A stretch of 64,000 bases of DNA from an uncultured Candidatus Saccharibacteria bacterium (GTDB taxonomy: Bacteria; Patescibacteriota; Saccharimonadia; CAILAD01; JADZBC01): positions 2,583 through 66,582 of the forward strand of contig CAZRJR010000003.1 of NCBI GenBank assembly GCA_964600985.1, given 5' to 3'. Below are positions 7,504-60,198 of the stretch, piece by piece (position 1 is the first letter of the stretch; every line of letters starts with the position of its first letter). The translations under genes were made by a program, and so were the position numbers. The notes under the pieces are model-generated. The model did no database searches. It worked only from the letters and a program-made list of their open reading frames with translations, and was not told where the DNA came from.

Positions 7504-8988
7504 TTAGGTATGAACCCAAACCGGTGTGCCGATATCAGCCCAGTTATATATAAACGCTGCTGTTGCGAGTGGTAAATTCACACAACCATGGCTGCCATTG
7601 TAGTAATAGTCCGGCCCACCGTAGCTCGACCGCCAGCGCCACGCATCGTGCAAGCCAAACCCGCCATAGAACGGCATCCAGTAGTCCACGAGTACATCAT
7701 AGTTATACTGCGGGCCATACTGGTAACCAATTAAGTGTGTGTTGCGAGCCTTGGCGTAAATACTAAACAGCCCGGTAGCGGTAGGGAAGCCCATACCAGT
7801 AGCTCCGCTCGTAATTGGTGATTCGTAGATTACTTGGTCGTCCTGATATACCCACAGGTGTTGAGAAGTAAGATTGACTTCGATATAACGCGCCACACCG
7901 TCGAGCGTGGTAATGCGATTGTATTCAGTTTTGAATGCAACAGGAGCAGTTGTAAGTGTAAAGCTATTCGGAGTTTGTTTTTGTACAGCAGCTAGTAGAC
8001 TGGTTACTGCACTATCCTGATTGATGGCCAGGCCGTCCTCGCCCTCCTGGTCGGTCGTGCTCACTCCGTTTTTGATAGTGACTTTTTTATTCTTTGGCGC
8101 TATGTTGAGCTCGTTTGCGATTGTCTGCACATAGCCTCGCACCTTGGCTTCATCCACCTGGACCACCAGTGTGCTCTCCCCGGTAGCACTTTTTTGAGCT
8201 GGGAACGTGAGCCAACTAGCAATGTCGACAGAACTGGGTTTAAACGTCTTCCCTTGGTACTCCAGCACCACATTGGTCTGGGTCATGAGCTTAGCCTGGT
8301 CAATCACTGGCTGTGTAGCGGGTAATTGAATATCTGCTTTTACCCTGGTAGGCGTAAGCTCTACCGATTTGTCTTGACCCTCTGCCAGCACCTGCTGGAG
8401 TGTATGACCAAGCTCGGCTTGATCAATCGACACGCCATCTTGGTCAGGGACCGCCGCGATCACGCCGTCTGCCACCTGTACTCGAGCATTCACCGGTGGA
8501 CGGCCCACGTCAGAGAGAACCCGAGATACAAACTTACCAAGCGTAGCTGTATTAATACTATATGCGTAGCCAGTTCTGCCATTCTTTAGAGAACTCACAA
8601 TACCAACAATTGGCCACGGGGTAGTGCGACCAATGCGATAAGCGGCGTCCACAGTTGTGTTAATGTCACTCGTTGCCCCGAGCTGCTCGCTTTTCATAAC
8701 ATAAGTTTTATCAGCCAGCTTGAGAGTTAAAGTATGTTGATTGTCTTTGGCTGCCAGCAGTTTAATCGCTTGTGCGCGGGTCTTGAGCCCAACATCCTGA
8801 TTGGCGATTACCACACCAGGGTAGATCACGCCGGTTAGGGGAGCAGCCAAGATTGCATTTACAACCACCACGCCGAGTATGGGGGCCGCCAGTGCCAAAC
8901 CAAAGATTCGGAAGAGCTTTTTGCCACGCAAACTCTTTGCCCCCTTAGCCGCACTCCCAGAGTTAGTCTGTGGTGTATTCCGCCTCAT
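7504..8988 (-). CDS. L,D-transpeptidase (YkuD) domain protein with N-terminal TM anchor
   Basis: 494 aa. N-terminal TM helix (LFRIFGLALAAPILGVVVV). C-terminal YkuD-like motif NGSHGCVNLP with catalytic His/Cys. Confidence 0.55.
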   Translation of the reverse strand: MRRNTPQTNSGSAAKGAKSLRGKKLFRIFGLALAAPILGVVVVNAILAAPLTGVIYPGVVIANQDVGLKTRAQAIKLLAAKDNQHTLTLKLADKTYVMKSEQLGATSDINTTVDAAYRIGRTTPWPIVGIVSSLKNGRTGYAYSINTATLGKFVSRVLSDVGRPPVNARVQVADGVIAAVPDQDGVSIDQAELGHTLQQVLAEGQDKSVELTPTRVKADIQLPATQPVIDQAKLMTQTNVVLEYQGKTFKPSSVDIASWLTFPAQKSATGESTLVVQVDEAKVRGYVQTIANELNIAPKNKKVTIKNGVSTTDQEGEDGLAINQDSAVTSLLAAVQKQTPNSFTLTTAPVAFKTEYNRITTLDGVARYIEVNLTSQHLWVYQDDQVIYESPITSGATGMGFPTATGLFSIYAKARNTHLIGYQYGPQYNYDVLVDYWMPFYGGFGLHDAWRWRSSYGGPDYYYNGSHGCVNLPLATAAFIYNWADIGTPVWVHT

Positions 8989-9028: not shown

Positions 9029-11842
9029 CTAGCGAATTATAACCTTTCCAAATGGCGCATGAGCCATAATTGCCTGTTCGATCGAGCTTAGTTTATTCTG
9101 GATTTCTGTAGTAGTTGGGTTGGGCCCCAGATCGAAACTTATACGGACTGTTAGGTTCTTAACCTTATCACGCTGCATTACGTCGTCTTGGTACAGACCG
9201 AGATATGCCACCTTCTGAACGCTATCCTGGTTAGTCACAAACTTCTCCAAATCACTCCAGGCTACGCTAGTATTACAAAGCATCGATATATCTCTGGAGA
9301 TAATCTGGTAATCAGGTAGATCAACCACCCGCATAGTAGCGGCCTGCTCTAACAGCGGACTTAGTAATACTTCACCATAGCTAACTTCGCTTTGTACGTC
9401 AGCTCGACTCACTACAGCCTTGCTCAGTTGGCCATATAGACCTACCTCGTCACCTTGCAAAGTAATTTTCCCACATCGACCGGGTGAGTAAACCGAGTCT
9501 TTGGCTACACTAAACTCCATATTTCCACCCGTAAAGCAATTAAGGTTATCAAGGGCTCCCTTGAGCCTGAGCAAGCTGTCTTTGCCAACCGTGGTAACGG
9601 CCAACTTCCAATCTTCAATCGGCAACTCACCGTCTTGCGTTGGCCTGTAGGTTCGGGATATCTCAAACATAGCAAACTGCTTGGCGTAGCCTTGGTTGTT
9701 CCGCACCACATCCAAATGGCTTGGTAGAATTGAGCTCCGTAGATACTGTTGTTCTTGGCTAAGCGGATTTGCAACTTCCATGAGTTCGGCTACGTTATAT
9801 CCAAGCCGCTCAATAGCGCGCGCACTAATGAATGAGTACGTGACAACTTCTTGAAGGCCAGTTGCTGCAAGGGCTCGTTTGAGCTCTAAAATATCGCCTA
9901 AAAGCCGATGTGGGCGCGTATTGGTAGGGGGTAGCGTAGGAAGTTCGGCCGGAATAGCATCGTATCCAATGATCTTAACGATCTCCTCGACCATATCCTC
10001 CTCGAGTCGCACATCGGTCCGCCACCACGGTGCCGTTACAGCCAAGATGTGATTAAAGTTTTCTACATAGCGCCTAGCGCCCAAGTACGTTGGCTCATTT
10101 GTAAAATCCGTTAACGGGACCTCGATCACGCCTTGCTGCTGGCGCGGCACCCACTCATCGCCTTTACGTTCATACTGGATTGCTGTAACTACCGTGTTAT
10201 TGCCTACATAAATTCCGTTATGCCCCACATACTCTGGTTCGTCGAGTGTATGCTTGTGCTTCTTGCCATCGGCATCAGTAGTGTAGTAGTGGTCGATCGG
10301 CGAGTTCTTCATAAGCCCCGTGTAGAACAACACGTCACCAGGTCTTAAGTCGCCAACTTCCACAGGCCAGCCATGGTGATATTGTCCGAGTGCCACATGG
10401 CCTACATGTACACCAATGCGCGAATAAATACGATCTACCAGATAAGAACAATCAAAGCCAGATTCACCGTGCTGTTTAAAGTTCGCGCCCCAAATATATG
10501 GTTTACCAAGATGCTTACGAGCTTCTTTTGTAATACTAAAATGCTCAACTTCGAAACCAAGCCGCTTAAGCCCACTAACCACTTGTTTTTCATCCAGCGC
10601 TACCCCTAGTATTTTCTCGGCCTTACGCAACCGTAAACCAATTTGCTGAACCCATGGCCAGCCATAAAGCTGATCTGTAGGGGAGTCAACTACTTTACCA
10701 TCGGCAACTTCTTGGAGCAGTACAACGAGTCGTTCGGCCGCAAAAGCAGGCAAGGGGAGGGGGAGTGAGCGCTCGAATCGTGCCGACGCCTCACTACGCA
10801 AGCCATGTCTAATTGCTGCCTTGCGAACTCGAGTTCTGTCAAAGTTCGCGATCTCAAGCAGTATTTCAGTCGTATTGGTGTCGACTTCGGTACGCGCGCC
10901 ACCCATCACGCCTGCTATACCAATAGCACCCTGGTCGTCTGCAATTACCAAGTCTTCCTCACTCAATGTGCGCTCTGCGCCATCCAGGGTGGTAAGTTTC
11001 TCAAGAGGGGAGGCGAAGCGTACTGCCAAATCACCGTGCAATTTAGTCGCATCATAAGCATGGGAGGGCTGTCCGGTTTCGAGCATAACAAAGTTAGTTA
11101 TATCTACAACGGGACTTATACTACGGATCCCGTTACCCTCTAAGTTATCCACAAGCCATTGCGGACTTTTCACGGCATTATTCACAGACATTTTCACAAC
11201 GATGAACCGCCTACATTCCCCCTTTTCCTTGACATCTACACTTTCTATGTCACTATATTGTATTTCGGCGGCAACAGGTAAAACTAGTTCGTTACCTTCG
11301 TCTCGGGCTGCCACTTCCCTAGCCAAGCCGATTAAACTCAAGTAATCCCACCTGTTTGCCGGTGTCTTTATATCCAGGCAATCACCTTTTTGCCATATGT
11401 CGCACAATGACTTTCCTAGGGGAGTTTCATCTGGCAAGAGCATGATACCGCTATGGTCGTCCGACACCCCCAGCTCCTTGGCTGAGCACAACATACCGTG
11501 CGACTCCACACCACGAAGCTTAGCCGCTTCAATGGTTAACCCATCCGGCAAGACACTGCCGACTTGCGCCAAGACCACCACTTGTTTTTCCGCCAAATTT
11601 GGTGCGCCACAAACTACCTCAACTGTGCCGCTGCCGGTATTAACAATAGCTATACGCAAACGATCAGCATCGGGGTGTGGCCGAACTTCATCTACCCGCG
11701 CAGTAATAATCTTCTCATCCCACGAGCTAGATGGCAGCACCTCCTCGACCTCAACTTCGGTTTTTAGTAACAACTCCACCATGCGTTCGGTTGAAAGCTG
11801 GCTCTTGAGATAGCGATTAATGCTGTCGACTGATATTTTCAT
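9029..11842 (-). CDS. pheT: phenylalanine--tRNA ligase beta subunit carrying an inserted NlpC/P60-like domain
   Basis: 937 aa. N-terminal tRNA-binding OB domain, B3/4, B5 (LGVALDEKQVVSGLKRLGFEVE), then ~160-aa insert GKPYIWGANFKQHGESGFDCSYLVDRIY...GDVLFYTG...HNGIYVGNNTVVTA (NlpC/P60 signature). PheT sequence resumes at VTAPWWRTDVRLEEDMVEEIVKIIGYDAIP. A C-terminal FDX-ACB-like region is present. Start overlaps the pheS stop. Confidence 0.95.
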   Translation of the reverse strand: MKISVDSINRYLKSQLSTERMVELLLKTEVEVEEVLPSSSWDEKIITARVDEVRPHPDADRLRIAIVNTGSGTVEVVCGAPNLAEKQVVVLAQVGSVLPDGLTIEAAKLRGVESHGMLCSAKELGVSDDHSGIMLLPDETPLGKSLCDIWQKGDCLDIKTPANRWDYLSLIGLAREVAARDEGNELVLPVAAEIQYSDIESVDVKEKGECRRFIVVKMSVNNAVKSPQWLVDNLEGNGIRSISPVVDITNFVMLETGQPSHAYDATKLHGDLAVRFASPLEKLTTLDGAERTLSEEDLVIADDQGAIGIAGVMGGARTEVDTNTTEILLEIANFDRTRVRKAAIRHGLRSEASARFERSLPLPLPAFAAERLVVLLQEVADGKVVDSPTDQLYGWPWVQQIGLRLRKAEKILGVALDEKQVVSGLKRLGFEVEHFSITKEARKHLGKPYIWGANFKQHGESGFDCSYLVDRIYSRIGVHVGHVALGQYHHGWPVEVGDLRPGDVLFYTGLMKNSPIDHYYTTDADGKKHKHTLDEPEYVGHNGIYVGNNTVVTAIQYERKGDEWVPRQQQGVIEVPLTDFTNEPTYLGARRYVENFNHILAVTAPWWRTDVRLEEDMVEEIVKIIGYDAIPAELPTLPPTNTRPHRLLGDILELKRALAATGLQEVVTYSFISARAIERLGYNVAELMEVANPLSQEQQYLRSSILPSHLDVVRNNQGYAKQFAMFEISRTYRPTQDGELPIEDWKLAVTTVGKDSLLRLKGALDNLNCFTGGNMEFSVAKDSVYSPGRCGKITLQGDEVGLYGQLSKAVVSRADVQSEVSYGEVLLSPLLEQAATMRVVDLPDYQIISRDISMLCNTSVAWSDLEKFVTNQDSVQKVAYLGLYQDDVMQRDKVKNLTVRISFDLGPNPTTTEIQNKLSSIEQAIMAHAPFGKVIIR

Positions 11843-24136: not shown

Positions 24137-24589
24137 ATGAAGATAGTTGCCAAGAACAAGCGCGCGCGTTTTGACTATGAGATCAAAGATACCCTCGTAG
24201 CCGGCATTGTATTGGCAGGCCATGAGGTTAAGAGTGTTAAATCTGGCCACATTAGCCTAAAAGGCAGTTTTGTGAGTATGAAGGCTGGCGAAGCCTACCT
24301 TACGAATGCCCACATCACACTATACAAGAGTGCGGCCAATATATCGTCGTACGACCCTGTGCGTTCACGCAAGCTTCTCTTGCACCGCAGGCAAATCAAC
24401 GAGATCCTAGGCGCTGTCAAAGCCCAAGGCCTAAGCGTAGTTCCCCTGGCTATAGGTATGGAACGCGGACTTATTAAAGTCGAGCTGGGTATTGGGCGCG
24501 GCAAGAAGAAGTTTGATAAACGCGAAGCCACGAAGCGGCGAGACATATTACGCGATGTAAGCCGCGAGATTAAACCTGTAAAAGCCTAG
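24137..24589 (+). CDS. smpB: SsrA-binding protein
   Basis: 150 aa: MKIVAKNKRARFDYEI...GHEVKSVKSG...RSRKLLLH. RBS AAGGAAAG upstream. Confidence 0.95.
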   Translation: MKIVAKNKRARFDYEIKDTLVAGIVLAGHEVKSVKSGHISLKGSFVSMKAGEAYLTNAHITLYKSAANISSYDPVRSRKLLLHRRQINEILGAVKAQGLSVVPLAIGMERGLIKVELGIGRGKKKFDKREATKRRDILRDVSREIKPVKA

Positions 24590-25955: not shown

Positions 25956-26669
25956 CTAAAACAAGTCTGCGCTATAACTCGTTTTGCGTTCTATGAGCCA
26001 CTCTTTGGCATTTAGGATGTCGATTTCCATTTTGAAACTATCAAACTTTTTGGGCTTGGCGTAGGCCGATTCAAAGCTTAACCATTCATTGTGGCCGCCT
26101 TCGAAGTCGGCTTGTAACGTGCCATGGGGGTTCACGCCATGCGCTACAAAGAATATTTTATCTTCTAGCATATCGCCACTTTCTTCAGACAGCACTTGCT
26201 CGTGGTACACGCCGGCAATCCGAAACTCAGCTCGCAAACCCGTCTCTTCGAGCAGTTCTCGCTCGGCACACTGCAGAATGGTCTCTCCCCACCGTATCTT
26301 ACCTGTTGGTAGGCCCCAAAAACCAAAGTAGGGGTTCTTGAGCCTTTCCTGAAACACATATTCGCGCGTGCCTTTAGGCCCCTTGCGCTCCACGGCAAGT
26401 ATGACTGCAATCTTAGGCTGGCGCTCCACGGTATTATTGTCGGTATCAAGCCGATTGGCATACTCTTTGCCTGACTGCGTAAGGCTGTATTTGCCAGCCT
26501 GCAGCTTAGCTACGAGCCCCAGCTCGACTAAGCGCCCAATATGGAAATTAAAATGATCGCTGCTTAGCCCAGTCGGCTTTTGAAGTTCACCAAACCCTGC
26601 GTGCGGCCGAAACAGCAGCTCCCGCAATATGCTAGTTTGTGCATCATGAATTTTTACCTCTAAACTCAT
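25956..26669 (-). CDS. NUDIX hydrolase with N-terminal winged-helix domain
   Basis: 237 aa. N-terminal wHTH (ILRELLFRPHAGFGELQK...). Nudix box GLPTGKIRWGETILQCAERELLEETGL. Confidence 0.7.
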   Translation of the reverse strand: MSLEVKIHDAQTSILRELLFRPHAGFGELQKPTGLSSDHFNFHIGRLVELGLVAKLQAGKYSLTQSGKEYANRLDTDNNTVERQPKIAVILAVERKGPKGTREYVFQERLKNPYFGFWGLPTGKIRWGETILQCAERELLEETGLRAEFRIAGVYHEQVLSEESGDMLEDKIFFVAHGVNPHGTLQADFEGGHNEWLSFESAYAKPKKFDSFKMEIDILNAKEWLIERKTSYSADLF

Positions 26670-26768: not shown

Positions 26769-28013
26769 CTAAGGGGTCGAGACTTCGAGTTTGCTAGGCT
26801 TTGGAGCCGGCCCAGCCTTTGGCGATTCAGTTTCGGTTGTAGGAATAAGAGACTGGAACTTCCATATAAATTCGGTGCCCGTCTTAGGGTGCCCGATCTC
26901 TACCGTAGCGCCCAATAAACCAGTCGCCAAGCTGGTAAGGTACAAGCCAAGGCCGGCACCCTCGTAGTTAAAGCGCAAGGCATCTTCACCACGCGAGAAC
27001 GGCTTAAATAGCTGACTGCGACGCTCAAGGCTTATGCCTGGCCCATTATCCTGCACACGAAGCTCAAAGCCCCTATGCAGCGCACGCAGCGTCACGAGGA
27101 CTCGCCCACCGCTCTTGGTGGCAGCCGAGAATTTAATAGCATTATCAAGCACCGGGGTAATGGCCTGCTTAAGCAGGAGTGGGTCGAGCTCGTATACCAG
27201 TTGCTCAGGGGAAAGCAATCGCACGTCCACATGCGCTTCGCTAGCCTGCTTTTTGTAGCTCGCAATCACTTCTTTGAGAAGCTTTGGCACATCTACCGAT
27301 TCGGTATTGAGCACATAGTCTGCCCCCCGATTCGTAAGTGTCGAGATCAAGCTCATACGATCGAGCAAACTCAGGAGTTTTTGGGCCGCCTCGTCGACCG
27401 CAGCATCGCTCCCCTGAGGAATCACCGAGGTAATGGCGAACAAATGCCCTTGCAGCTCGTCGGTGGCGGCGCGAAAGAACTCAGCCCTAGCATGCTCGAG
27501 CTGCATTTCCTCGCGGATAGCAAAGCTCGATTGCTTAGCAATGCGCCTACGCAGCTGGAAGTTGCGCAGATTACTCACCAACACCTGCAGTACAAGCAGC
27601 AACGCCACCACGATAGTTAGTATGTATAATGCGTCGGCGTTCAGGAGCCCAGCTAAGCTAAACAGCCAGATCGCCAGAATAATCACGGCAGTAAGCAAAA
27701 ACGCCGGAATCAAAAAAGCTGCGCTAAATAATGGATTCTTAGCCTCGGGAATGTAGTAGTTCTTTTTATTGCCCCTATCTACCGCATTGATCTTAGCTGA
27801 TAATCCGCCAATTATCTTAGCCATAGCCTCTATGTGGCCTTTGAGTTCCTGCGTTTGCTTGGGCGTAGCCGCGCTATAGCCGCTCACAGCATCCGAAGTG
27901 GTAGCGAGCGACTTTTCGAGCTGGCTCACGGCTTGATCGCCGTGCGTACCTATCAGGGGTCTAGGCCTGCTAGCCTGCGAGCTTGGTGGTGTGTTGGTAG
28001 GAGGTGGCTTCAT
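26769..28013 (-). CDS. sensor histidine kinase (orphan; no response regulator adjacent)
   Basis: 414 aa. Two TM helices, H-box region TDELQGHLFAITSV, HATPase_c (NAIKFS..., GAGLGLYLTSLATGLLGATV). Confidence 0.8.
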   Translation of the reverse strand: MKPPPTNTPPSSQASRPRPLIGTHGDQAVSQLEKSLATTSDAVSGYSAATPKQTQELKGHIEAMAKIIGGLSAKINAVDRGNKKNYYIPEAKNPLFSAAFLIPAFLLTAVIILAIWLFSLAGLLNADALYILTIVVALLLVLQVLVSNLRNFQLRRRIAKQSSFAIREEMQLEHARAEFFRAATDELQGHLFAITSVIPQGSDAAVDEAAQKLLSLLDRMSLISTLTNRGADYVLNTESVDVPKLLKEVIASYKKQASEAHVDVRLLSPEQLVYELDPLLLKQAITPVLDNAIKFSAATKSGGRVLVTLRALHRGFELRVQDNGPGISLERRSQLFKPFSRGEDALRFNYEGAGLGLYLTSLATGLLGATVEIGHPKTGTEFIWKFQSLIPTTETESPKAGPAPKPSKLEVSTP

Positions 28014-29472: not shown

Positions 29473-29481
29473 TGGTGGAGC
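29464..29481. repeat. direct repeat copy B = last 9 nt of ssrA + 9 nt of 3' flank
   Basis: Identical to 28758..28775. Contains GCTCCACCA, the ssrA 3' terminus. Confidence 0.8.
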
Positions 29482-29861
29482 TGCAGGGAATCGCACCCTG
29501 GTCCGCCGGTCCGTCTATATAACCTACTACAAGCTTAGCTTACTTAGCGATTGTTTAAGGAGGTGCGCGCACTCACAGTAAGCAAAATGTACTCGCTACT
29601 CCTCTATTCTGCATCTTAGTGATTGCCGGATAGAACAGCAACCAAGCAACCAGATGGTGTGACGCCCTGCAATCTATCTGGTATCGATCACAATGAGCGG
29701 CGAACGCGTATTAGGCGTAAGCTGGCGCAAAGGTTGGCATGCTAAAAGCAGCTTTTACTTTGCTAACGAGTGTATTTGCACTTGTTGAGTTTGATCTGTA
29801 ACGTCGATCAGGCGGCTTGCAGTTATATGTCAAGAATCCAACGTCGAAGCTGATCAGCCCC
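29473..29861 (-). ncRNA. ssrA: tmRNA (transfer-messenger RNA)
   Basis: Minus strand reads 5' GGGGCUGAUCAGCUUCGACG...3' GGACCAGGGUGCGAUUCCCUGCAGCUCCACCA. Acceptor GGGGCUG/CAGCUCC has the G3:U70 Ala identity pair, T-arm CAGGG-UGCGAUU-CCCUG, encoded CCA. Internal tag frame GCA AAU ACA CUC GUU AGC AAA GUA AAA GCU GCU UUU AGC AUG CCA ACC UUU GCG CCA GCU UAC GCC UAA (...FAPAYA-stop); resume codon not determined. smpB is 5 kb away. Confidence 0.85.
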
Positions 29862-43204: not shown

Positions 43205-43606
43205 ATAGCCTCATAAGCCAGTTATAAGCCGAATTCTGTAACCCGCTAAAGCGAACTAGCGATCATCTATCTTCCTGCATTACTGCAGGCGTCCATACCA
43301 AGGTATGGATCGTGCGACAAACCCCAAAAAGAGCGAGTAACTCTGCCTAGTGGCGGGGCCCATAGTCTTGCAGCGAATGGGGTTTACCTCCAATCATAGT
43401 CACCTAAGATTGCTGTGTGCTCTTACCACACTCTTTTCACCCTTACCCCTCACCTTTTATGTCGCCACAAAAGGTGAGGGGCGGTATTGTTTCTGTGGCA
43501 CTTTCCCTAAGGTTGCCCTCGGTTGCCGTTAGCAACCATCCTACTCTATGCTGTTCGGACTTTCCTCTCCCGCTAGGGAGCGATCGCTCGCTGACTTATG
43601 AGGATT
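43205..43606 (-). ncRNA. rnpB: RNase P RNA, bacterial type A
   Basis: Minus strand: P1 CCUCAUAAGUCAG / CUGGCUUAUGAGG. P4 5' strand GGGAGAGGAAAGUCCGAACAGC. GGUAAGGUGAAAAGAGUGUGGUAAGAGCACAC (P10.1-P12 region). GGUAAACCCCAU. P4 3' strand ACAGAAUUCGGCUUAUAACUGG. No ORF. Confidence 0.85.
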
Positions 43607-43625
43607 ATATTATACGATAATTAGA

Positions 43626-44838: not shown

Positions 44839-45258
44839 TTATTGTATATCGGCCAGTGGGTTATCAGCAAGGTAAGCTCGTATCTTCTCCGCGGCTGGTT
44901 TGAGCTCGTCGAGGCCACCAAATACTGCCCGAGCTGGGTCCATATCGGATTCTTGGTCGATCGGAACTAAGTGAACGTGCACATGCGGCACGCCAAGCCC
45001 CATAAGCTGCAATGCAACCACCGTAGGCTCAAACACAGCATCGAGCACTTGCGCAAACCGTCGCGAGAGCTTCATAACACCCACATACACATCCGCATCC
45101 ATATCGTAAAAGCGTTCGTAGGCTACTTTGGGTATTACCAGGCTGTGCCCGGGCTTGAGTGGTGCTCGAGACAAGATAATAATTGCCTGTTCATCCTCGT
45201 ATAGCACCTCGGCTGGCTCTTGCCGCTCTATAATGCGCGTAAATATACTTTCTGCCAT
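44839..45258 (-). CDS. HIT-family hydrolase
   Basis: Start taken at the internal Met (MAESIFTRIIER...). Histidine triad HVHVHLVP. Confidence 0.7.
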   Translation of the reverse strand: MAESIFTRIIERQEPAEVLYEDEQAIIILSRAPLKPGHSLVIPKVAYERFYDMDADVYVGVMKLSRRFAQVLDAVFEPTVVALQLMGLGVPHVHVHLVPIDQESDMDPARAVFGGLDELKPAAEKIRAYLADNPLADIQ

Positions 45259-45299
45259 ATCACCCACTACCCCTTCGTTATTATTATACATTACTACGC

Positions 45300-45590
45300 T
45301 ATTTAGAGGCCGTATACTGCGAAAAAGCCTGTGGGCTAGGCACACTTGCCCCCTCCGCAGATACCTGCGCTAGAGCGGCGCTATACTGAGCTTTTAGGCC
45401 ATCCACTCGGCGCGTTAGCTCCCCACTCATAGCGTGCAGGTGGTAGCCATAGGCTGATACCATAGCTATTAGAAAAAACGTTTTTACTCTCACGGGCACG
45501 ATCCACTTTTATCGACGCTATTATAGCCTTAGTGAGGCTGAATTGCGAGCATAACCTACTTTGGCTTAGATCCTCGTGAGCTATCACCAA
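45300..45590 (-). pseudogene. frameshifted remnant of a histidine-kinase DHp domain downstream of the giant surface-protein gene
   Basis: The -1 frame continues the H-box helix of the upstream ORF as ...VIAHEDLSQSRLCSQF (like DHp helix 2, LL-x-LSRLE). Only ~70 codons remain before the HIT gene, and no HATPase_c is possible. Confidence 0.3.
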
Positions 45591-48500
45591 GCACTTCTAT
45601 GCCATTCTGGATGATGGTAATCGGGGTATTAAGGTAGTGCGAGGCCAAGGCAATGAAGTTGTCCTGCTGGGCACGAATAGACTTACGCTTAGCTATAAAC
45701 TCACGGTTGAGCTTGTCTTTGCGAATTTCGTTATTAGACTGGTAGTACAGAGATAAGGCGAATATAAGCAGGAGCAGGAACAAGAGGTATGGGAAGCCAA
45801 TAGCAGCCTGGCGCGGTACAAAGTGAGCAACTGCTAGTATGCCTCGGTCAAACCAGTTTAGACTTACCTTGTTTGGTGAGGTTGGGGTGTACTGGGTAGT
45901 GATTATACGTGGCGACTTGCCAGATGTTGGCTGGATCGTTGTAGCCGTAGGTGGCTCTACAGTTGGTGGTGTAGTTGGACAAGTGTTGGTAGTAGCACAC
46001 GGTACCGACGGACAAGTGTTGGTTACCGTACAATCTGCCGGCGATGCTGGAACTATGAAGGCTATGCCAGCCTGTGGTGAAGTTATTGCACCTACCACTC
46101 GAGAGCCATACGCGTACGATCCAGTAGCTAGCGGCATGAGGGGTGACGTGGGTTCCAGGAAAGCACCAGCCTGCACGTTCCAGACTAAAGCACTTGAACT
46201 ATCACTAAAACTCAATAATGGAATATATACTCTCTCAGGGTTTGAGCTTATACCCAGACCAGTAGGCAAGCCATTAATTCCGTCATGCAACTCAACTTGG
46301 TTAGTGCCTAGATTCACCACTGCAAACTTCCCTATTGAAGGCATTACAGCAATATAGGCATAGCTAGCTGAAGCATCAAGGGTAAACGGATAAAAGATAT
46401 CTTCGTACGGGTCAGGGAAGGCCATGACGCTTATTGAATTCAACTCCAAGCCACTAGAAGCATCTAATACCTTTAAGACTAGTTCATGGCCCTCCACATC
46501 CTTCGCTAGGTAATACAGCTTGCCAGCTCTATAGGTGGTAGTACCGACCATTGTGTTGCCAGAAACGTTAATTGTCCTTACTGCACCAGTAGCAAGCGTA
46601 TATTCCAACACAGTATTCACCTCGGCTCCGAAACTCGTATAGAACTTAGTGGCGTCTTCATTAAGTGCACCATTAGTAAGCCCGTAAACATTCGATCCTG
46701 GCAAGATGGCTTCCGATCCCTCTAGGGAGAAGGTGCTTAGGTTTAACTTTCTCAGCATTGAGCCAGCCGAATTGCTCTGTTCTGTTAGCACTGCGAAGTT
46801 ATCGTCAGGTGTTATACTCAAGCCGAGGGCAAATGAATTCGTTTGAGGAGGAACGGTAAGCGTACGCTGGCTCATAGTATTTAAGTCAAGTTCGCGCACA
46901 ACAGCCTGTACTCCATTGGCGTTATAGCCAAATATATACAACTTCGTTCCGCTATTGTTCAAGGTTGCCCCAAACGCAACAAACGGAGGTTGACTAGCGC
47001 TGTTAATCCTTATGGTTCTGAGGACAGAGGCACTGCTGTTGTCGATTACTTGGACTGCTGTATTACCACTACTATCGAGCCAAGGAATAAACGCAACGTC
47101 ACTACCGGGAACCCATCGAGCCACTAGGTTATGATTACCGACAGCGACCCCACTTACCTCGTAGGTCCAGGTACCCTGCGCATTAGCAGTAGTTGTTCCG
47201 ACCTGAGTACCGTCTACAAAGATCGAGATTACTTTGTTGGCCGGCCCCGTGCCAGTCACGGTACTAGCGCCACCACCAAAGCTCGCACCATTAATTGGCG
47301 AGGTAATAGTCACAAACGGACTGTTGTCGTACACTACCGCCTGACCCACAACGAGTGTAAATGCTTGAGTGTCACTACTAAACCCATCGTCGGCTTGTAC
47401 AGTAAAGTTATACGTTCCTGCCTGAGTTGGTGTGCCCTGCAAATAGCCTTGCAAGCTTAGGCTCATGCCGCTTGGCAGGCTTCCACTCACCACAGTAAAG
47501 ACCGGCTGAGAGGCGGCGCCTTCGTATTCGATAGTTTTACTATATTGTAGTCCTACGCGACCAAAAGGCAGATTCGCAGTAGTGATGTTTAGTTGTGGTG
47601 CTGTCACTACTATGGTGTATTCTTGGCTCGTTGTGCCTCCAGGGTTTGCGCCACGAGTATCCTGAGCCTCTACCATAAAGGTATACGTGCCTGCAGAAGT
47701 TGGGGTGCCATACAAGATCCCGGTGCTGCCGGCGCCAACTAGTGTAAGTCCGTCGGGCAAGGCTCCAGTCACTACACTGAATGCCACATCTCCCAAATGA
47801 TTAGCGGTATATATATACTCTTGGTAGCTGGCGCCAACCTGAGTATCTGGTAAAACTTCTGTGGTTATGCTTAACGGTGCTGTTTCGTTCACTAAGATAG
47901 AGAGCGAAGCGGTGTCAGAAGTGTGCCCATCCGTCGCCGTCACATCAAAGCCATAAGTACCAATTGCTTCCGGTATACCAGTTATGTAGCCCGTATTGGT
48001 ATCCAGGCTCAGTCCGGGCGGCAAGCTACCAGAACTAATGCTATACGTAACCGTACCCGAGTTTTCGTCTACCGCAATGTTATCCTGGTACGACACACCA
48101 ACTGCGCCATCATCTAGGTTCGTGGTTGAAATATGTACCGGCACACAGTCATCCGTTGTAAACGTTGCATCACTACTAACTTGGAATCCGCCTCTATCAA
48201 TCACAAATACCCTGTAGTGGTACAACGTGCTACAGGCTAAGCCGCTCACCGCTTTGTCGATGCCTGCCACGCCGTCTACCGGACTCATGGCGCTAGAATC
48301 TACCGCCGAGCTACCATAGCTAGTAGTCAGGCCATACTGGAAGCCACGAGACGTAATGCCCTGTGGGTAATCAGTTGTGCCATGCAGAGTTGCTCCGGTA
48401 CGAGTAATGTTGTCAGCCGGTAATGCAGTGAGGGTACGCAGGCCCGTGCAGGGTTCGGTCGTAAACGTACTGTCGCTACTATAGTCTGTACTATCAGCAT

Positions 48501-49758
48501 CGACCACAAAGGCACGATAGTGGTACGTAGTATCGCACTGCAGTGCATCGAGCGCGGCATTTATAGCCGGCTGCCCCTTGTATACATAGCCCGCAACACC
48601 CGGGCCCCCGGCCAGTGGCGCCCAGATAGTCCCATTACTATCTGCATATACCCCGCCCAAGTAGCCAGCACCGTCAGCAACTTGCCAATCTCGCACTAAA
48701 TTACCATTTGCATCATATACCCACACATAGAATCCACCGCTTGTGACATAAGCGTGACCATCGGCAGAAACATAAATATGTGTTGGGTTTATGTCCACAT
48801 CCCACTGATCCACGAAATTGGCGTTTGTATCATATATGAGTACACGCATATTACTAGGGTCTGTAATATAGAGATTATTGCTTGTGTCAGTAGCCAGATA
48901 CTGCCATTCAGCCCAGGTGGCAAGCTGGTTCGTACCTGTACCACTACTACTTATGAGTTGGCTCTGTAGTACACCGGCCGAGCTATACTCCTGTACAAGA
49001 GGCTGCCGGTCAATATTAAAGATTCCCGGGGCGGGGTCTGCATCCCACTGACCCACTACATATATATTACCCAGCCCGTCTACAGTAATGGCCGATGCGC
49101 CAAACGGGGTACCACTACTCTGCTCGGCCAGTGGGAACTGGCTCACGTAATTACCGCTGCTATCTAGCTTCTGAACCCGGTAAGTAGCTAGGTCTGCTAC
49201 ATATATATTACCGCTGCCGTCTACAAACAAATCCATTGGCTGCTGGAATTGACCGTTACCAGACCCATAAGAGCCATATTGAGCAATCAAATTACCGCTA
49301 CTATCGTACTTATTAATCGAGGCTGTCGAGCTACCGTCGCTATCGGCGCGATACATATTGCCAGCCGCATCCATCGTATAGGCCCAGGCCCCTTGAACAT
49401 TTGAGAATGTCTCTGCGGTGGTATAGCTGCTAGGATCAGTGGTGTCGAGCACCTGATTGCCATAGCTCGTAGAAGTACCGTACTCGAAGCCACGCGAGGT
49501 CACGCCATCAGGGTAATCAAATCTTGCGTGTAGGCTCGCGGCCGAAGTAGTCACGTCAGTTGCTGGTAGTGCCGTTACTACCCTACTCCCGCTATCGGCC
49601 TTGATCTTGCCCGCATACCACAACAACGCACTACTTACGGTCTGAACTGAAATAATCGCAAAAAGTACAAATATGGCATACTTACTAACCTTAAGCGACG
49701 TAGACGGCTTAAGGTGAAACTTGTTATTCGGCTTTAGGGGCTCTGGGTTTGGTCCCAT
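45556..49758 (-). CDS. giant cell-surface protein: N-terminal TM anchor, NHL-repeat beta-propellers, tandem Ig-like (PF05345-type) domains, Thr/Pro-rich stalk, C-terminal TM followed by a histidine-kinase H-box stub
   Basis: 1400 aa. Repeated NLYITDPSNMRVLIYD / IYVADLATYRVQKLDSSG NHL-like blades. Four LPxGLSLD...TGxYxFxVxAxDG Ig-like units. C-terminus LLFLLLLIFALSLYY (TM) then RAQQDNFIALASHYLNTPITIIQNGIEVL (compare PhoR [27 protein letters not shown]), then stop. Confidence 0.7.
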   Translation of the reverse strand: MGPNPEPLKPNNKFHLKPSTSLKVSKYAIFVLFAIISVQTVSSALLWYAGKIKADSGSRVVTALPATDVTTSAASLHARFDYPDGVTSRGFEYGTSTSYGNQVLDTTDPSSYTTAETFSNVQGAWAYTMDAAGNMYRADSDGSSTASINKYDSSGNLIAQYGSYGSGNGQFQQPMDLFVDGSGNIYVADLATYRVQKLDSSGNYVSQFPLAEQSSGTPFGASAITVDGLGNIYVVGQWDADPAPGIFNIDRQPLVQEYSSAGVLQSQLISSSGTGTNQLATWAEWQYLATDTSNNLYITDPSNMRVLIYDTNANFVDQWDVDINPTHIYVSADGHAYVTSGGFYVWVYDANGNLVRDWQVADGAGYLGGVYADSNGTIWAPLAGGPGVAGYVYKGQPAINAALDALQCDTTYHYRAFVVDADSTDYSSDSTFTTEPCTGLRTLTALPADNITRTGATLHGTTDYPQGITSRGFQYGLTTSYGSSAVDSSAMSPVDGVAGIDKAVSGLACSTLYHYRVFVIDRGGFQVSSDATFTTDDCVPVHISTTNLDDGAVGVSYQDNIAVDENSGTVTYSISSGSLPPGLSLDTNTGYITGIPEAIGTYGFDVTATDGHTSDTASLSILVNETAPLSITTEVLPDTQVGASYQEYIYTANHLGDVAFSVVTGALPDGLTLVGAGSTGILYGTPTSAGTYTFMVEAQDTRGANPGGTTSQEYTIVVTAPQLNITTANLPFGRVGLQYSKTIEYEGAASQPVFTVVSGSLPSGMSLSLQGYLQGTPTQAGTYNFTVQADDGFSSDTQAFTLVVGQAVVYDNSPFVTITSPINGASFGGGASTVTGTGPANKVISIFVDGTQVGTTTANAQGTWTYEVSGVAVGNHNLVARWVPGSDVAFIPWLDSSGNTAVQVIDNSSASVLRTIRINSASQPPFVAFGATLNNSGTKLYIFGYNANGVQAVVRELDLNTMSQRTLTVPPQTNSFALGLSITPDDNFAVLTEQSNSAGSMLRKLNLSTFSLEGSEAILPGSNVYGLTNGALNEDATKFYTSFGAEVNTVLEYTLATGAVRTINVSGNTMVGTTTYRAGKLYYLAKDVEGHELVLKVLDASSGLELNSISVMAFPDPYEDIFYPFTLDASASYAYIAVMPSIGKFAVVNLGTNQVELHDGINGLPTGLGISSNPERVYIPLLSFSDSSSALVWNVQAGAFLEPTSPLMPLATGSYAYGSRVVGAITSPQAGIAFIVPASPADCTVTNTCPSVPCATTNTCPTTPPTVEPPTATTIQPTSGKSPRIITTQYTPTSPNKVSLNWFDRGILAVAHFVPRQAAIGFPYLLFLLLLIFALSLYYQSNNEIRKDKLNREFIAKRKSIRAQQDNFIALASHYLNTPITIIQNGIEVLGDSSRGSKPK

Positions 49759-49887: not shown

Positions 49888-49963
49888 TGGTCAGGGTGAC
49901 AGGACTTGAACCTGCGACCTCACGGCCCCCAGCCGTACGCGCTACCAACTGCGCCACACCCTG
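49888..49963 (-). tRNA. tRNA-Pro (anticodon GGG), CCA encoded
   Basis: CAGGGUG-UG-GCGC-AGUUGGUA-GCGC-G-UACGG-CUGGGGG-CCGUG-AGGUC-GCAGG-UUCAAGU-CCUGU-CACCCUG-A-CCA. Cloverleaf with 7/4/5/5-bp stems. Confidence 0.85.
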
Positions 49964-50082: not shown

Positions 50083-50625
50083 GTGCCAAGGATCAACAAA
50101 TCAGCAGAGGTGCTGAAAGTCATAGCGGGCAAACGGGTAATCGTCGAGGACGAACTAACCCTTGCCCGCTCTCTTTTGAACTTATTTGGGGCTAACGCCC
50201 GCCGTCGCATTATCGATACTGCCGCCCTACTTACCAAGCAAGGCTTTGTATCGGTTGGCTCAATAGATGGCGAGAAGCTCTATAAGGTAACTGACAAAGG
50301 CCTACGCCACCTTGACCTATACTTGCTTAGCAAGAAAGGTATAGCCAAGCCCAGGGAATGGACTGGCAAGTGGCATATCATCACCTTCGAGATACCTGAA
50401 CAGCAGAAGGTAACCCGTAACTATCTGGTAGCTCAGCTTAAGCTGCAGGGATTTGTAAACTACACCAAGGGTCTATGGATCTACCCCTACAATCCTACTG
50501 AATACGTAAAAGGCCTTAAAAAGCTCTTAGGGCTTGGTAAGGAAATTAAACTCATTACCGCTATTGATCTGGATGACGAAAAGCAGCTCCTTACCCACTT
50601 TGGCCTAAGCAAAAACCCTACCTAA
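50083..50625 (+). CDS. hypothetical wHTH regulator, PaaX-C-like (GTG start)
   Basis: 180 aa. WTGKWHIITFEIPEQQKVTRNYLVAQLKLQGFVNYTKGLWIYP resembles the PaaX C-terminal domain pattern W-G-W-xxxF-IPE...R...L...GF...S-W. Confidence 0.3.
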   Translation: MPRINKSAEVLKVIAGKRVIVEDELTLARSLLNLFGANARRRIIDTAALLTKQGFVSVGSIDGEKLYKVTDKGLRHLDLYLLSKKGIAKPREWTGKWHIITFEIPEQQKVTRNYLVAQLKLQGFVNYTKGLWIYPYNPTEYVKGLKKLLGLGKEIKLITAIDLDDEKQLLTHFGLSKNPT

Positions 50626-53565: not shown

Positions 53566-54258
53566 CTAGCCGCCGCTAACCGTTACTTTAATAGCTTCAT
53601 CGGTAGAGATGTTAGGGTTTGGAGCACTTAAGTCGGCTTCCTTAACCCCTTCTTGCACAGGTGCTTTACCAAACACCTCCAGCGTATCAAGCAAAACGGT
53701 CTTTTTGGCGTCCAGTATATCCATCAGGAACCGGTCATTTAGATTACGACGATAATCAAAGTCTTCTACCCGCATAGCCCAGTAATTAAGCTCGCGGCTC
53801 ATTTCTTGTTCCATGTCACCAATAATCTTGGCTAGCTGAGCCTTGTTCATGTCGCCGATTATGCAAATGTCTACGTTCTGGTTGCTACCACGCACAAAAG
53901 CACCAGACAAGAACAGAACCTTAACATTGCCAGCCCGAGAAATTTTCTTAAGAATTTGGTCTTCTTCTTTGGTTTCTTTAATCTCCTTAGTTTTAGTCGA
54001 GATCTGCTGGAAGATGGACTGGAGTTCATTATGGAATTTATACTTTGGGTCAACCTCGTAGTACAGCCGATTGGACTGGTTAACTGACTTTACGATCCCG
54101 ATATTAAGCAAGTTTTGCAGCTCACGACGTACTGAGTTGATTTGCTCATCGACTTTACGGGTAATCTCACGTACATAGAATGGTCGCTCGGGATTGTTAT
54201 AAAACAAGCTCAGAAGTTTTACTCTCGTCTTTGATCCAAACAATTGTTCGAAGCGCAT
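53566..54258 (-). CDS. winged-helix + minimal nucleotidyltransferase (Pol-beta superfamily) domain protein
   Basis: 230 aa. N-terminal wHTH (YVREITRKVDEQINSVRRELQNLLNIGIV). NTase motif SGAFVRGSNQNVDICIIGD (GS...D-x-D). Confidence 0.45.
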   Translation of the reverse strand: MRFEQLFGSKTRVKLLSLFYNNPERPFYVREITRKVDEQINSVRRELQNLLNIGIVKSVNQSNRLYYEVDPKYKFHNELQSIFQQISTKTKEIKETKEEDQILKKISRAGNVKVLFLSGAFVRGSNQNVDICIIGDMNKAQLAKIIGDMEQEMSRELNYWAMRVEDFDYRRNLNDRFLMDILDAKKTVLLDTLEVFGKAPVQEGVKEADLSAPNPNISTDEAIKVTVSGG

Positions 54259-58605: not shown

Positions 58606-60198
58606 CTACGTCAACTCGTTTAGCAAAAATGCCAATCTAACCTGTACGGCATCTTCAAACTTAGTAAGGTCATAGCCGGTGAGTTGTCGAATGCGATTAA
58701 CTCGGTAAATGAGTGTATTGCGATGCACCTTAAGGCGGCGTGCAGCTAGAGTAAGGTTCAACGAGGAATCCAAAAGCGCGTGTGTAGTTGCCTCGAGATG
58801 CTTCTGAGTACGAATGCCTTGCACCGTCGTTTCGGCGCTATGACAAGCAAACTCGCGCGCTTCCTTGGTTCCGATCAGTGCCAACAATCCACTAGCAAAT
58901 CCGCCGTTCACCACTCTTGCAGTCGACCACTTTTGCGACGCTATTGACTGGGTATACTGCAAGGCTATTAGGGAATTACAAAGCTGGCCCCGTGCCTGTT
59001 GGCTTGTTAAGTACGTGACCTTTGAGCCCACTGGGAGCTTACCTACAAGCTGCTCTGCCTGACGAGCGGCTTGCCGAGCTGGTATGTTGTCCACCATAAG
59101 CCAGCGGCTCTCACTAAGCTTAACTTTAGCAATAAACGTTGTACTCATATCAACATTAGCGAGATTCGCAGTAGTCTCTACTAAGTACAGGGCGAACTCC
59201 TTTGCTAAACTCACCCCTACACCGGCCATAAACTGGCGAATCTTGGCGTCACGCTGCGTAGAGCCTCCTAGCAAAGCCACTGTAACCTTGTCACGTAAAC
59301 AAACGTTATCCTCCTGCTCGACGTCGGGCGGCCCAGTATAGTCAATCTCCTGGAGAGACACGGCCAAATACAATTGTGTGGCATCGTTAAAGTCAAGTGG
59401 ATCCAAGCCTGTATGCTGACGAATTTTGTCTAGGCGATATATGACCGTATTACGATGAATCCTAGCCACCCTAGCTACTTCCGTAGGGCTCATACTATGC
59501 GCAAAGAACATTTTAAGCGTCGGTAGCAACACCTTGGGCCTGGCGAGTGCTGCAAGCAGTTCTTGGCTCTGAAGGCGCGACTGCGTACGCATACTGTCGC
59601 CATCTGCTATACACGCGACCAAGCCAATGTCTGCTTGGCGGTATACATACGGCTTACCCCAGAGCTGCTTGCCTAAAGTGGCGGCGTTAATCGCGTCTAG
59701 GTAGGCGTGCGGCAAAGCAGTATGCCGAGACGCGGCTTCGCTCAGCCCTATATTAACTTCCTTACCCAGAGCACGGGCAGCTTTTTTGAGTGCCGTACTT
59801 ACTTCATTCGAGCTGTCCGACTCATCTTCGAAAGGCAGTATCACGCATAATTGTGAACCACCCATATAGAGTAAGATTTGTTGGCCACGGATAAGCTCAT
59901 GTGCCTTCTGGAACCATTGATGTGTAAGCTCGGTGCTTTCGTTTGTGGCCGGATCGTTATTTTGCAGTTCGGCCACCACCACAATGCTTGGCAGAGCTAC
60001 TCGACGCAACGCAGCCCGAACCAAAGGCTGGGACGGAACAACTCCTTGCAAGTAAAGGCTCAATGCCTGACTAGCCTCTTGGTTTGAGGGTGTTTTATAG
60101 TGAAGCCTGGCAGTAAAACTCTCAATTATTTTTGGCGACAATACAGGCCCAGATAGCACTGGGGCATTCTTCTTACCTACTTCGAGCCGTGTCGTCAT
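58606..60198 (-). CDS. PucR/CdaR-family transcriptional regulator with internally duplicated C-terminal HTH module
   Basis: 530 aa. Two PucR-type HTH segments: ...SPTEVARVARIHRNTVIYRLDKIRQHTGLD... (mid) and ...LAARRLKVHRNTLIYRVNRIRQLTGYD... (C-terminus). Confidence 0.6.
   Translation of the reverse strand: MTTRLEVGKKNAPVLSGPVLSPKIIESFTARLHYKTPSNQEASQALSLYLQGVVPSQPLVRAALRRVALPSIVVVAELQNNDPATNESTELTHQWFQKAHELIRGQQILLYMGGSQLCVILPFEDESDSSNEVSTALKKAARALGKEVNIGLSEAASRHTALPHAYLDAINAATLGKQLWGKPYVYRQADIGLVACIADGDSMRTQSRLQSQELLAALARPKVLLPTLKMFFAHSMSPTEVARVARIHRNTVIYRLDKIRQHTGLDPLDFNDATQLYLAVSLQEIDYTGPPDVEQEDNVCLRDKVTVALLGGSTQRDAKIRQFMAGVGVSLAKEFALYLVETTANLANVDMSTTFIAKVKLSESRWLMVDNIPARQAARQAEQLVGKLPVGSKVTYLTSQQARGQLCNSLIALQYTQSIASQKWSTARVVNGGFASGLLALIGTKEAREFACHSAETTVQGIRTQKHLEATTHALLDSSLNLTLAARRLKVHRNTLIYRVNRIRQLTGYDLTKFEDAVQVRLAFLLNELT

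Follow-up and report, generated by a model that had tools for sequence, protein, structure and literature searches.

A probable natural split histidine kinase of Saccharibacteria, with a giant surface protein as its sensor and phospho-acceptor

We analyzed a 64-kb stretch of DNA (64,000 nucleotides; the window) from an uncultured Candidatus Saccharibacteria bacterium (GCA_964600985.1, contig CAZRJR010000003.1, forward-strand positions 2,583 to 66,582), in which one gene on the minus strand (45556..49758) encodes a giant surface protein of 1400 amino acids (aa). The open reading frame (ORF) is real: a public collection holds an identical copy of the protein (P0001), and a whole-protein search recovered six homologues from other assemblies (P0002 to P0007; 41 to 58% identical overall). 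The C terminus appears to carry the phospho-acceptor module of a histidine kinase (45574-45741), and an ATP-binding module is encoded on a separate protein of the same genome, a 414-aa protein here called k414 (26769..28013, minus strand), whose intact gene lies 17.5 kb from that of the giant protein. We judge it reasonably likely that the two proteins make up a sensor histidine kinase that is split by nature, the giant protein contributing the sensor and the phospho-acceptor and k414 being its partner. The basis for this proposal is homology, colinearity, conservation, co-occurrence, and intact catalytic motifs; from these we infer that the two proteins would form a complex, phosphorylate in trans, and signal.

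The tail of the giant protein begins with a conserved extracellular juxtamembrane motif (WFDRGILAVAHFVPRQAAIGFPYLL) and continues into the second transmembrane (TM) helix of the protein (aa 1298-1339; 45742..45867, minus strand). Both were placed with an alignment of 14 homologous tails (A1), which is ungapped across the TM helix and the H-box, and with AlphaFold2 (AF2) helices; positions P20 and P28 of A1, in this juxtamembrane/TM part, are invariant across the kinase family described below. On the cytosolic side, profiles, selection, and AF2 delimit helix 1 of a dimerization and histidine phosphotransfer domain (DHp1) with its H-box (aa 1340-1395; 45574..45741, minus strand), ending with RAQQDNFIALASHYLNTPITIIQNGIEVL. 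AF2 predicted a single uninterrupted helix from the TM segment through the H-box. The candidate phospho-acceptor is His1374, in SHYLNTP (codon 45637-45639). Ten codons after RAQQDNFIALASHYLNTPITIIQNGIEVL the protein stops, at a stop codon (45556..45558, minus strand) that falls within the loop joining helix 1 to helix 2 and is kept in the homologues; the chain ends 10 residues after helix 1, and the two-helix hairpin is not within the giant protein. An earlier note on this DNA, made from the letters alone, had read the C-terminal TM helix, the motif behind it, and the stop in just this way.

The note had also likened this segment to the HisKA H-box. That likeness is weak when the giant protein is scored by itself: the Pfam HisKA profile (PF00512) matched at E = 0.018, with 15.5 bits vs a 26.9-bit cutoff, over profile positions 2 to 30 of 66. 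Full-length members of the family also score below this cutoff (16.5 to 24.7 bits). At the level of the family, the likeness held. When the A1 profile was compared to the Protein Data Bank (PDB), the only matches among natural proteins were histidine kinase DHp domains (HK853, E = 1.3e-4; EnvZ; CpxA; SrrB; VicK; and DivL). The tail His aligned with the phospho-His of these kinases (ashYLntP vs SHELRTP of HK853), and the H-box Thr at +4 and Pro at +5 were conserved in the tail family. Relatives of about 1600 to 2200 aa have the same juxtamembrane motif, TM helix, and FxxLxxHYLxTP, followed about 300 residues on, in the same chain, by HATPase_c, which bears out the suggestion that the giant ectodomain comes from a sensor kinase lineage. 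It is this family context, not the single-protein score, by which the tail can be recognized as a genuine HisKA-type H-box.

The same note had taken the catalytic half to be lost or frameshifted, with the next DHp helix still readable in a different frame (45381-45590). Two facts favor a recently frameshifted or truncated sensor kinase, whether a pseudogene or an assembly error: full-length relatives exist, and the ORF taken alone does end inside a DHp domain. Nevertheless, we give this reading almost no credence. P0002 to P0007 stop at the same place, with the stop 27 to 33 residues past FIALASHYL in these six and in the second giant gene of locus L002. In a selection test on an 83-codon tail core from seven loci, the proportion of nonsynonymous differences (pN) was 0.00 to 0.11 vs 0.25 to 0.88 for synonymous differences (pS), with synonymous sites near saturation and dN/dS of 0.01 to 0.07 where computable. 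A run of 26 residues (KSIRAQQDNFIALASHYLNTPITIIQ) is identical in six of the seven loci, with L003 and L008 deviating at the first residue only, and no part of the giant protein is better conserved than the cytosolic H-box helix. A stop that is the same in seven loci whose synonymous divergence is saturated argues against a recent lesion and makes an assembly error at this site unlikely.

Downstream of the stop, we scanned all six frames of 45290-45640 with a family hidden Markov model (HMM), every filter being disabled; only the true frame matched, up to the stop, and the other frames scored below zero. The "VIAHEDLSQSRL" helix was ruled out as a kinase remnant, there being no family-HMM signal in its frame, and the stretch in which the note had placed the next DHp helix holds a small ORF in a third frame (45299..45499). 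No HATPase_c domain was detected in the 1400-aa protein or in any downstream frame. About 200 nucleotides (nt) lie between the giant-gene stop and the HIT gene and therefore leave no space for such a domain, as the note had recognized. The DNA that does follow is in conserved synteny: a small membrane ORF (64 to 72 aa in the different loci) and then the HIT, UppP/BacA, and RNase H genes. Given the shared stop, the purifying selection on the tail, the lack of a downstream remnant, and the intact half encoded at 26769..28013, the claim of a lost or frameshifted catalytic half was not upheld; moreover, the two genes are likewise unlinked on a single contig of another genome. The note's fallback of a surface protein with only a phospho-acceptor stub came nearer to the truth, the catalytic half being a separate gene. 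The comparison with orthologues that it had proposed cut both ways: the same stop without a kinase remnant speaks against a broken kinase, and the H-box similarity, which survives proper alignment, speaks for the kinase likeness itself.

The family to which the tail belongs is large and has been seen so far in Patescibacteria. In order, its members have a sensor, a TM helix, DHp1 with its His, a pair of TM helices, a His-less second hairpin (DHp2), and HATPase_c. An exhaustive profile search with A1 returned 1318 representative clusters with E <= 1e-3, of which 395 had E <= 1e-10; it replaced an uninformative word-index search with the tail only, which had yielded three short fragments and missed known homologues. 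We counted classes among the top 150 clusters. Full-length kinases made up 102 of these (many of about 600 to 650 aa, others giants), 34 were proteins ending after helix 2, 9 ended after helix 1, as does the window protein, and 5 were fragments. The DHp1 His was present in 146 of the 150 representatives, whereas across the wider family a His occupied the canonical DHp2 site in 3 of 116 and the position five residues further on (+5) in 4 of 116. Pfam HisKA matches in members of about 620 aa also fall on DHp1; the family's acceptor candidate is therefore the His that the giant protein retains.

Concatenations of tails and kinase halves were colinear end to end with the full-length proteins P0008, P0009, P0011, and P0016. 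The two kinds of split complement each other: where the sensor ends in a helix-1 stub, its kinase half carries about 95 cytosolic residues at the N terminus, a helix among them, and where the tail has both helices (helix-1+2 tails), the half begins about 15 residues ahead of the TM segment. As read from these sequences, the family has been split twice, once after helix 1, as in the window gene, and once after helix 2. The sensor/acceptor and catalytic subunits share a single kinase as their ancestor; both are intact, under selection, and co-resident. A literature search found no paper on this kinase family.

The catalytic subunit k414 was found by tblastn with the kinase half of locus L005 (58% identical, E = 2e-136) and was further characterized with Pfam and twelve orthologues, giving 13 sequences with k414 itself. 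Near its N terminus lies a cytosolic helix (aa 51-85, ELKGHIEAMAKIIGGLSAKINAV; 27759..27863, minus strand), which we propose as the helix 2 partner of the stub on the grounds of colinearity, conservation, and AF2. It is colinear with the region behind the H-box of full-length kinases and predicted to be helical (pLDDT of about 71 to 77). Residues L57, H60, A63 to K66, and L71 to N76 are invariant in the 13 sequences, and in this clade the helix (LxxHxxAMAKIVGxLSAKIN) is among the most conserved segments. Two TM helices follow (27564..27722, minus strand; positions 203-225 and 233 onward of the AF2 model, and alignment). Beyond them, alignment and Foldseek identified DHp2, a canonical hairpin beside the catalytic domain in which the His is replaced (ATDELQGHL; 27318..27563, minus strand). 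HATPase_c comes last (26856..27185, minus strand; Pfam E = 5e-19), with the N, G1, F, and G2 boxes DNAIKFS, DNGPGI, FKPF, and GAGLGL; with these boxes intact, k414 looks catalytically active. Two His residues, His60 in the N-terminal helix and His190, are invariant in the 13 sequences but not in the wider family.

We ran AF2 on a single-chain chimera of the window tail and k414, with 61 family members as the alignment (pLDDT 80.3; pTM 0.73). The model ran in the order TM/H-box helix, disordered junction, k414 aa 51-85 helix, two TM helices, canonical hairpin, and catalytic and ATP-binding (CA) domain, and its core matched those of HK853, CpxA, and ZraS (Foldseek, E of about 6e-14). His1374 lies 35 residues past its own TM helix and the degenerate DHp2 site 38 residues past its own, so both sites sit at the same depth below the membrane.

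In other loci, the two halves are neighbors. The giant gene of L005 (P0006) ends in the same stub, and the next gene, overlapping it at TGATG, encodes 416 aa with HATPase_c. The same adjacent pair, with the same TGATG stop/start overlap, is present in L008 (Patescibacteria group bacterium MAG_140). The kinase halves of L005 and L008 are 73% identical, and that of L008 is 61% identical to k414. Both loci also have the class I aldolase, SmpB, and ArgRS genes that neighbor k414 in the window, and full-length giant kinases occupy this aldolase/SmpB/ArgRS neighborhood in L088. The separated arrangement recurs on a 67.8-kb contig of another genome (GCA_041907025.1, JAYRIB010000004.1), where the stub-tailed giant P0004, sitting in the PaaX-HIT locus, and a kinase half that is 70% identical lie about 19 kb apart. 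A contig scan with a kinase-half alignment keyed on generic G1 and F-box peptides returned ordinary kinases at 78 of 80 loci; its sole true orthologue was L008, and L012 served as a control with a canonical kinase and regulator.

Loci with longer tails, or with more than one tail, show the same association. In L007, a gene with a helix-1+2 tail lies directly upstream of the kinase half and overlaps it. In L006 (2375-17575), three surface-protein genes with near-identical helix-1+2 tails precede one kinase half: a 1419-aa NHL protein, the 1817-aa P0026 (NHL and He_PIG), and a 693-aa DUF285/PKD protein; the 313-aa kinase half overlaps the last of these genes at its end. The pS values among these tails (0.36 to 0.46) indicate that their similarity is not due to recent gene conversion. 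Two stub-tailed giants stand in tandem in L002.

These observations suggest the following model. The ancestral protein ran on past the H-box through helix 2 of DHp1, two TM helices, the His-less DHp2, and the ATP-binding domain. Its gene was severed in this lineage at the loop that joins the two DHp1 helices, and the second half persists as the 414-aa gene. The stub helix and the N-terminal helix of k414 would then reassemble the DHp1 bundle noncovalently at the membrane, after which the CA domain of k414 would phosphorylate His1374. A ligand or contact at the ectodomain could alter this phosphorylation through the continuous TM/H-box helix. At other loci, two or three surface proteins that differ from one another share a tail and stand beside a single kinase half; for this reason, several sensor subunits are probably interchangeable partners of one catalytic subunit. 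A fuller version, which we advance only tentatively, is a modular multisubunit kinase in which varied giant surface proteins plug their H-box helix into a shared catalytic subunit and so complete a bundle that was cut in its hairpin.

Several observations weigh against a split kinase. As noted above, the HisKA match of the single giant protein is below the gathering threshold. HisKA kinases have Glu or Asp directly after the His. In every listed member of this family the DHp1 His is followed directly by Tyr, and its chemistry may differ from that of HisKA kinases. In the k414 orthologues, the invariant His190 lies five residues past the degenerate DHp2 site (~27444-27446) and could be an alternative acceptor in that clade. 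No receiver domain was found in the window by tblastn with CheY, PhoB, NarL, and Spo0F or by Pfam on about 50 ORFs, and no receiver-domain protein lies beside any related or split locus. A weak PhoB match at 54070-54249 belongs to a winged helix-turn-helix (wHTH) protein and not to a regulator.

Some of these points could be accommodated if the tail were a docking or regulatory helix that is never phosphorylated, with k414 using its own His190 or acting as a pseudokinase scaffold like DivL and RetS. The invariance of His60 and His190 among the 13 sequences, the Tyr in place of an acidic residue in the stub, and the complete DHp2 and CA core of k414, which matches solved kinases, are all consistent with this explanation. 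However, a His is rare at both the +5 position and the canonical DHp2 site in the wider family, and the near-universal retention of the DHp1 His, together with the H-box Thr and Pro, is hard to explain without a chemical role; we therefore regard a docking helix as unlikely. Alternatively, the giant protein might be an adhesin or S-layer-like protein whose tail is an anchor plus a helix for, e.g., localization or turnover, with the co-occurrence of k414 historical rather than functional. Its ectodomain is indeed built of adhesin- and S-layer-type modules (He_PIG, Big, NHL, and YVTN propeller), the giant gene and k414 are unlinked in this genome, and a response regulator was not found nearby. 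Against this stand the conservation of the cytosolic H-box helix, which no other part of the protein surpasses, the more than 100 representative clusters in which the same module is fused to a kinase, and the adjacent, overlapping stub/kinase gene pairs of L005, L008, L006, and L007. In addition, the highly conserved helix of the kinase half would be partnerless unless the stub supplied its partner. Taken together, these data make a purely adhesive role quite improbable, and the split kinase is the reading that we carry forward.

Split histidine kinases are known but rare, and the studied cases separate whole domains. In Mycobacterium tuberculosis, HK1 and HK2 (Rv0600c/Rv0601c) have a HisKA-type acceptor and an HATPase domain on separate genes. 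CheA3/CheA4 of Rhodobacter sphaeroides is a characterized split kinase of which neither half works alone (PMC3591291). In Synechocystis, hik36 and hik43 (encoding Hik36/Hik43, or PilL-N/PilL-C) are at distant genome positions (PMC7656254). According to a survey, HATPase is missing from 3.66% of HisKA proteins (Amin et al. 2013, PMC3591291); HisKA/HATPase split kinases have been proposed, with the domains of EnvZ working when separated in vitro (PMC3591291).

The putative kinase described here resembles split CheA in having the acceptor His on one polypeptide and the dimerization and ATP-binding domains on another, and Hik36/Hik43 in that its two genes are far apart. Unlike split CheA, which is cytosolic and has an autonomous HPt domain (P1), its acceptor is a single helix of the HisKA type at the end of a 1400-aa surface protein with two TM helices; the cut is inside the helical hairpin, and the catalytic half is a membrane protein with a His-less hairpin of its own. 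The separation of acceptor and HATPase genes is shared with HisKA-only/HATPase splits and HK1/HK2. However, those systems have the whole DHp on one protein, whereas here the stub-class sensor has helix 1 only, the catalytic half keeps a degenerate second DHp, and several sensors share one tail.

Among single-chain kinases, PhoR, EnvZ, CpxA, and HK853 have the same order of TM helix, extracytoplasmic sensor, TM helix, and H-box helix, and the CA fold and boxes match; with HK853 the H-box aligns gap-free, including Thr at +4 and Pro at +5. Compared to these kinases, the present system has HY for HE or HD, two TM helices and a second hairpin between H-box and CA, an ectodomain of more than 1200 aa, and a protein divided over two genes. 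DivL and RetS provide a different comparison: the DHp2 and CA core of k414 matches them structurally, and its canonical His is absent, as in DivL. Unlike in those proteins, an additional hairpin further upstream provides a conserved His, and the system has therefore probably remained a true kinase.

Several features would be new if the split kinase is real. These are the two TM helices and His-less hairpin between phospho-acceptor and ATP-binding domain; a double fission with one cut within the acceptor hairpin, which leaves the acceptor helix and its partner helix on different proteins; and two or three unrelated ectodomains on identical tails beside one catalytic gene, suggesting that many sensors feed one kinase. 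It would amount to a natural split-protein complementation wiring many sensors to one kinase and, for giant surface proteins of Patescibacteria that otherwise lack annotation, would provide a function that can be tested. The lifestyle of Patescibacteria depends on contact with other cells, and these episymbionts might use such a system to sense host cells or surfaces. There is also a risk for annotation, in that such giant genes will be labeled hypothetical proteins or truncated kinases and the kinase half a sensorless orphan kinase.

Predicted topology places about 1250 residues of the giant protein outside the cell, with the membrane spanned twice. As the earlier note had it, the 1400-aa ORF opens with a membrane anchor (~aa 27-47, from sequence reading), preceded by a basic peptide whose KFHLKPSTSLKVSK motif is kept in homologues (49618..49758 for both, minus strand); by the positive-inside rule, this N terminus is probably cytosolic. 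The first extracellular element is a fibronectin type III (FN3)-like unit (aa 58-438; 48445..49587, minus strand), recognized by sequence profiles, with an NHL propeller between its strands. This propeller is six-bladed (~aa 125-390), all six blades being recognizable from sequence, and matches the PDB NHL domains of Thin and TRIM71 (E of 9e-24 to 1e-15). With the propeller spliced out, the FN3-like flanks match Pur_ac_phosph_N (positions 11 to 93 of 93, E = 8.8e-4). The order of FN3 N-half, propeller, and FN3 C-half (CxTxYHYRA) recurs throughout the homologues of the giant protein. A second FN3-like unit (aa 440-538; 48145..48441, minus strand), placed by sequence comparison, has no Pfam match by itself and is uninterrupted by any propeller. 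The closest homologues (P0002 to P0005) have a second propeller inserted there, the absence of which from the window protein accounts for the 64% query coverage in the homologue search.

The four Ig-like units of the note are three He_PIG domains (aa 540-810; 47329..48141, minus strand; PF05345, E = 6e-27 over three stretches) and a fourth of the Big_3_5/Big_7 type (aa 814-887; 47098..47319, minus strand; Pfam E = 9e-5 and 7e-4, both below the cutoff). The next segment (aa 886-1240; 46039..47103, minus strand) gave no sequence-profile match in Pfam or NCBIfam, and its fold was therefore assigned through structure prediction and Foldseek. AF2 returned a confident model (pLDDT 83.3; pTM 0.84) of a seven-bladed, YVTN-type beta-propeller, whose best match was the archaeal S-layer YVTN propeller 1l0q (E = 3.4e-15; TMq 0.71; 346 columns). 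The blades that the note had put at roughly a dozen of the NHL type number about 13 and belong to two types of propeller, of which only the first is NHL. A Cys/Thr/Pro-rich stalk (~aa 1241-1297; 45868..46038, minus strand; sequence reading), which the note had described as Thr/Pro rich, connects the second propeller to the juxtamembrane motif.

The small ORF behind the giant gene (45299..45499, minus strand) is conserved and encodes 66 aa with a basic N terminus, one TM helix, and an Ala/Gln-rich helix. Homologous ORFs occupy the corresponding position in L001 and L002, at about 50% identity, and in L003/L004, at 28%, and none is present in L005 and L008, where the kinase half follows the giant gene. 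It has no protein-family match. We considered and rejected it as a detached helix 2: the resemblance is faint and compositional only, its helix is predicted to face outward, since the basic N terminus precedes the TM segment, and it is absent from L005 and L008. The listed GTG start (45345) of the HIT ORF (44839-45345, minus strand) overlaps the small ORF; the true start is probably the ATG at 45258-45256 (MAESIFTRII), by comparison with L001 (139 aa, MESSIFSRII).

On the upstream side of the giant gene, a tRNA-Pro(GGG) gene (49888-49963, minus strand) lies about 130 nt away, and a PaaX-like regulator (50083-50625, plus strand; PaaX_M, E = 3e-16) is divergently oriented. The position of this regulator is kept in L001 and L003/L004, and it may regulate the giant gene. 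Around k414, a 237-aa protein with wHTH and NUDIX domains (25956-26669, minus strand) is encoded directly downstream; the pairing is kept in L090, L092, L093, and L095, whereas in L005 and L008 this position is occupied by a 110-aa multi-TM protein. A transfer-messenger RNA (tmRNA) gene (29473-29861, minus strand; tag ANTLVSKVKAAFSMPTFAPAYA) lies about 1.5 kb upstream of k414, and the SmpB gene (24137-24589) is near it.

Elsewhere in the window, a class A bacterial RNase P RNA (43209-43599, minus strand; 224 bits) occupies the space that separates the RNase H gene from the sugar transferase gene; the ORFs listed at 43350-43620 are spurious. Other genes encode a VirD4/TraG-like coupling protein (4443-6956, minus strand), an L,D-transpeptidase with PG_binding_4 (7504-8988, minus strand), and a PucR-type regulator with two HTH_30 domains (58606-60198, minus strand). 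The beta subunit of PheRS (9029-11842, minus strand; 937 aa) has an NlpC/P60 peptidase-like segment between B3_4 and B5 (aa 446-515, E = 1.8e-9), an insertion that is unusual for a tRNA synthetase.

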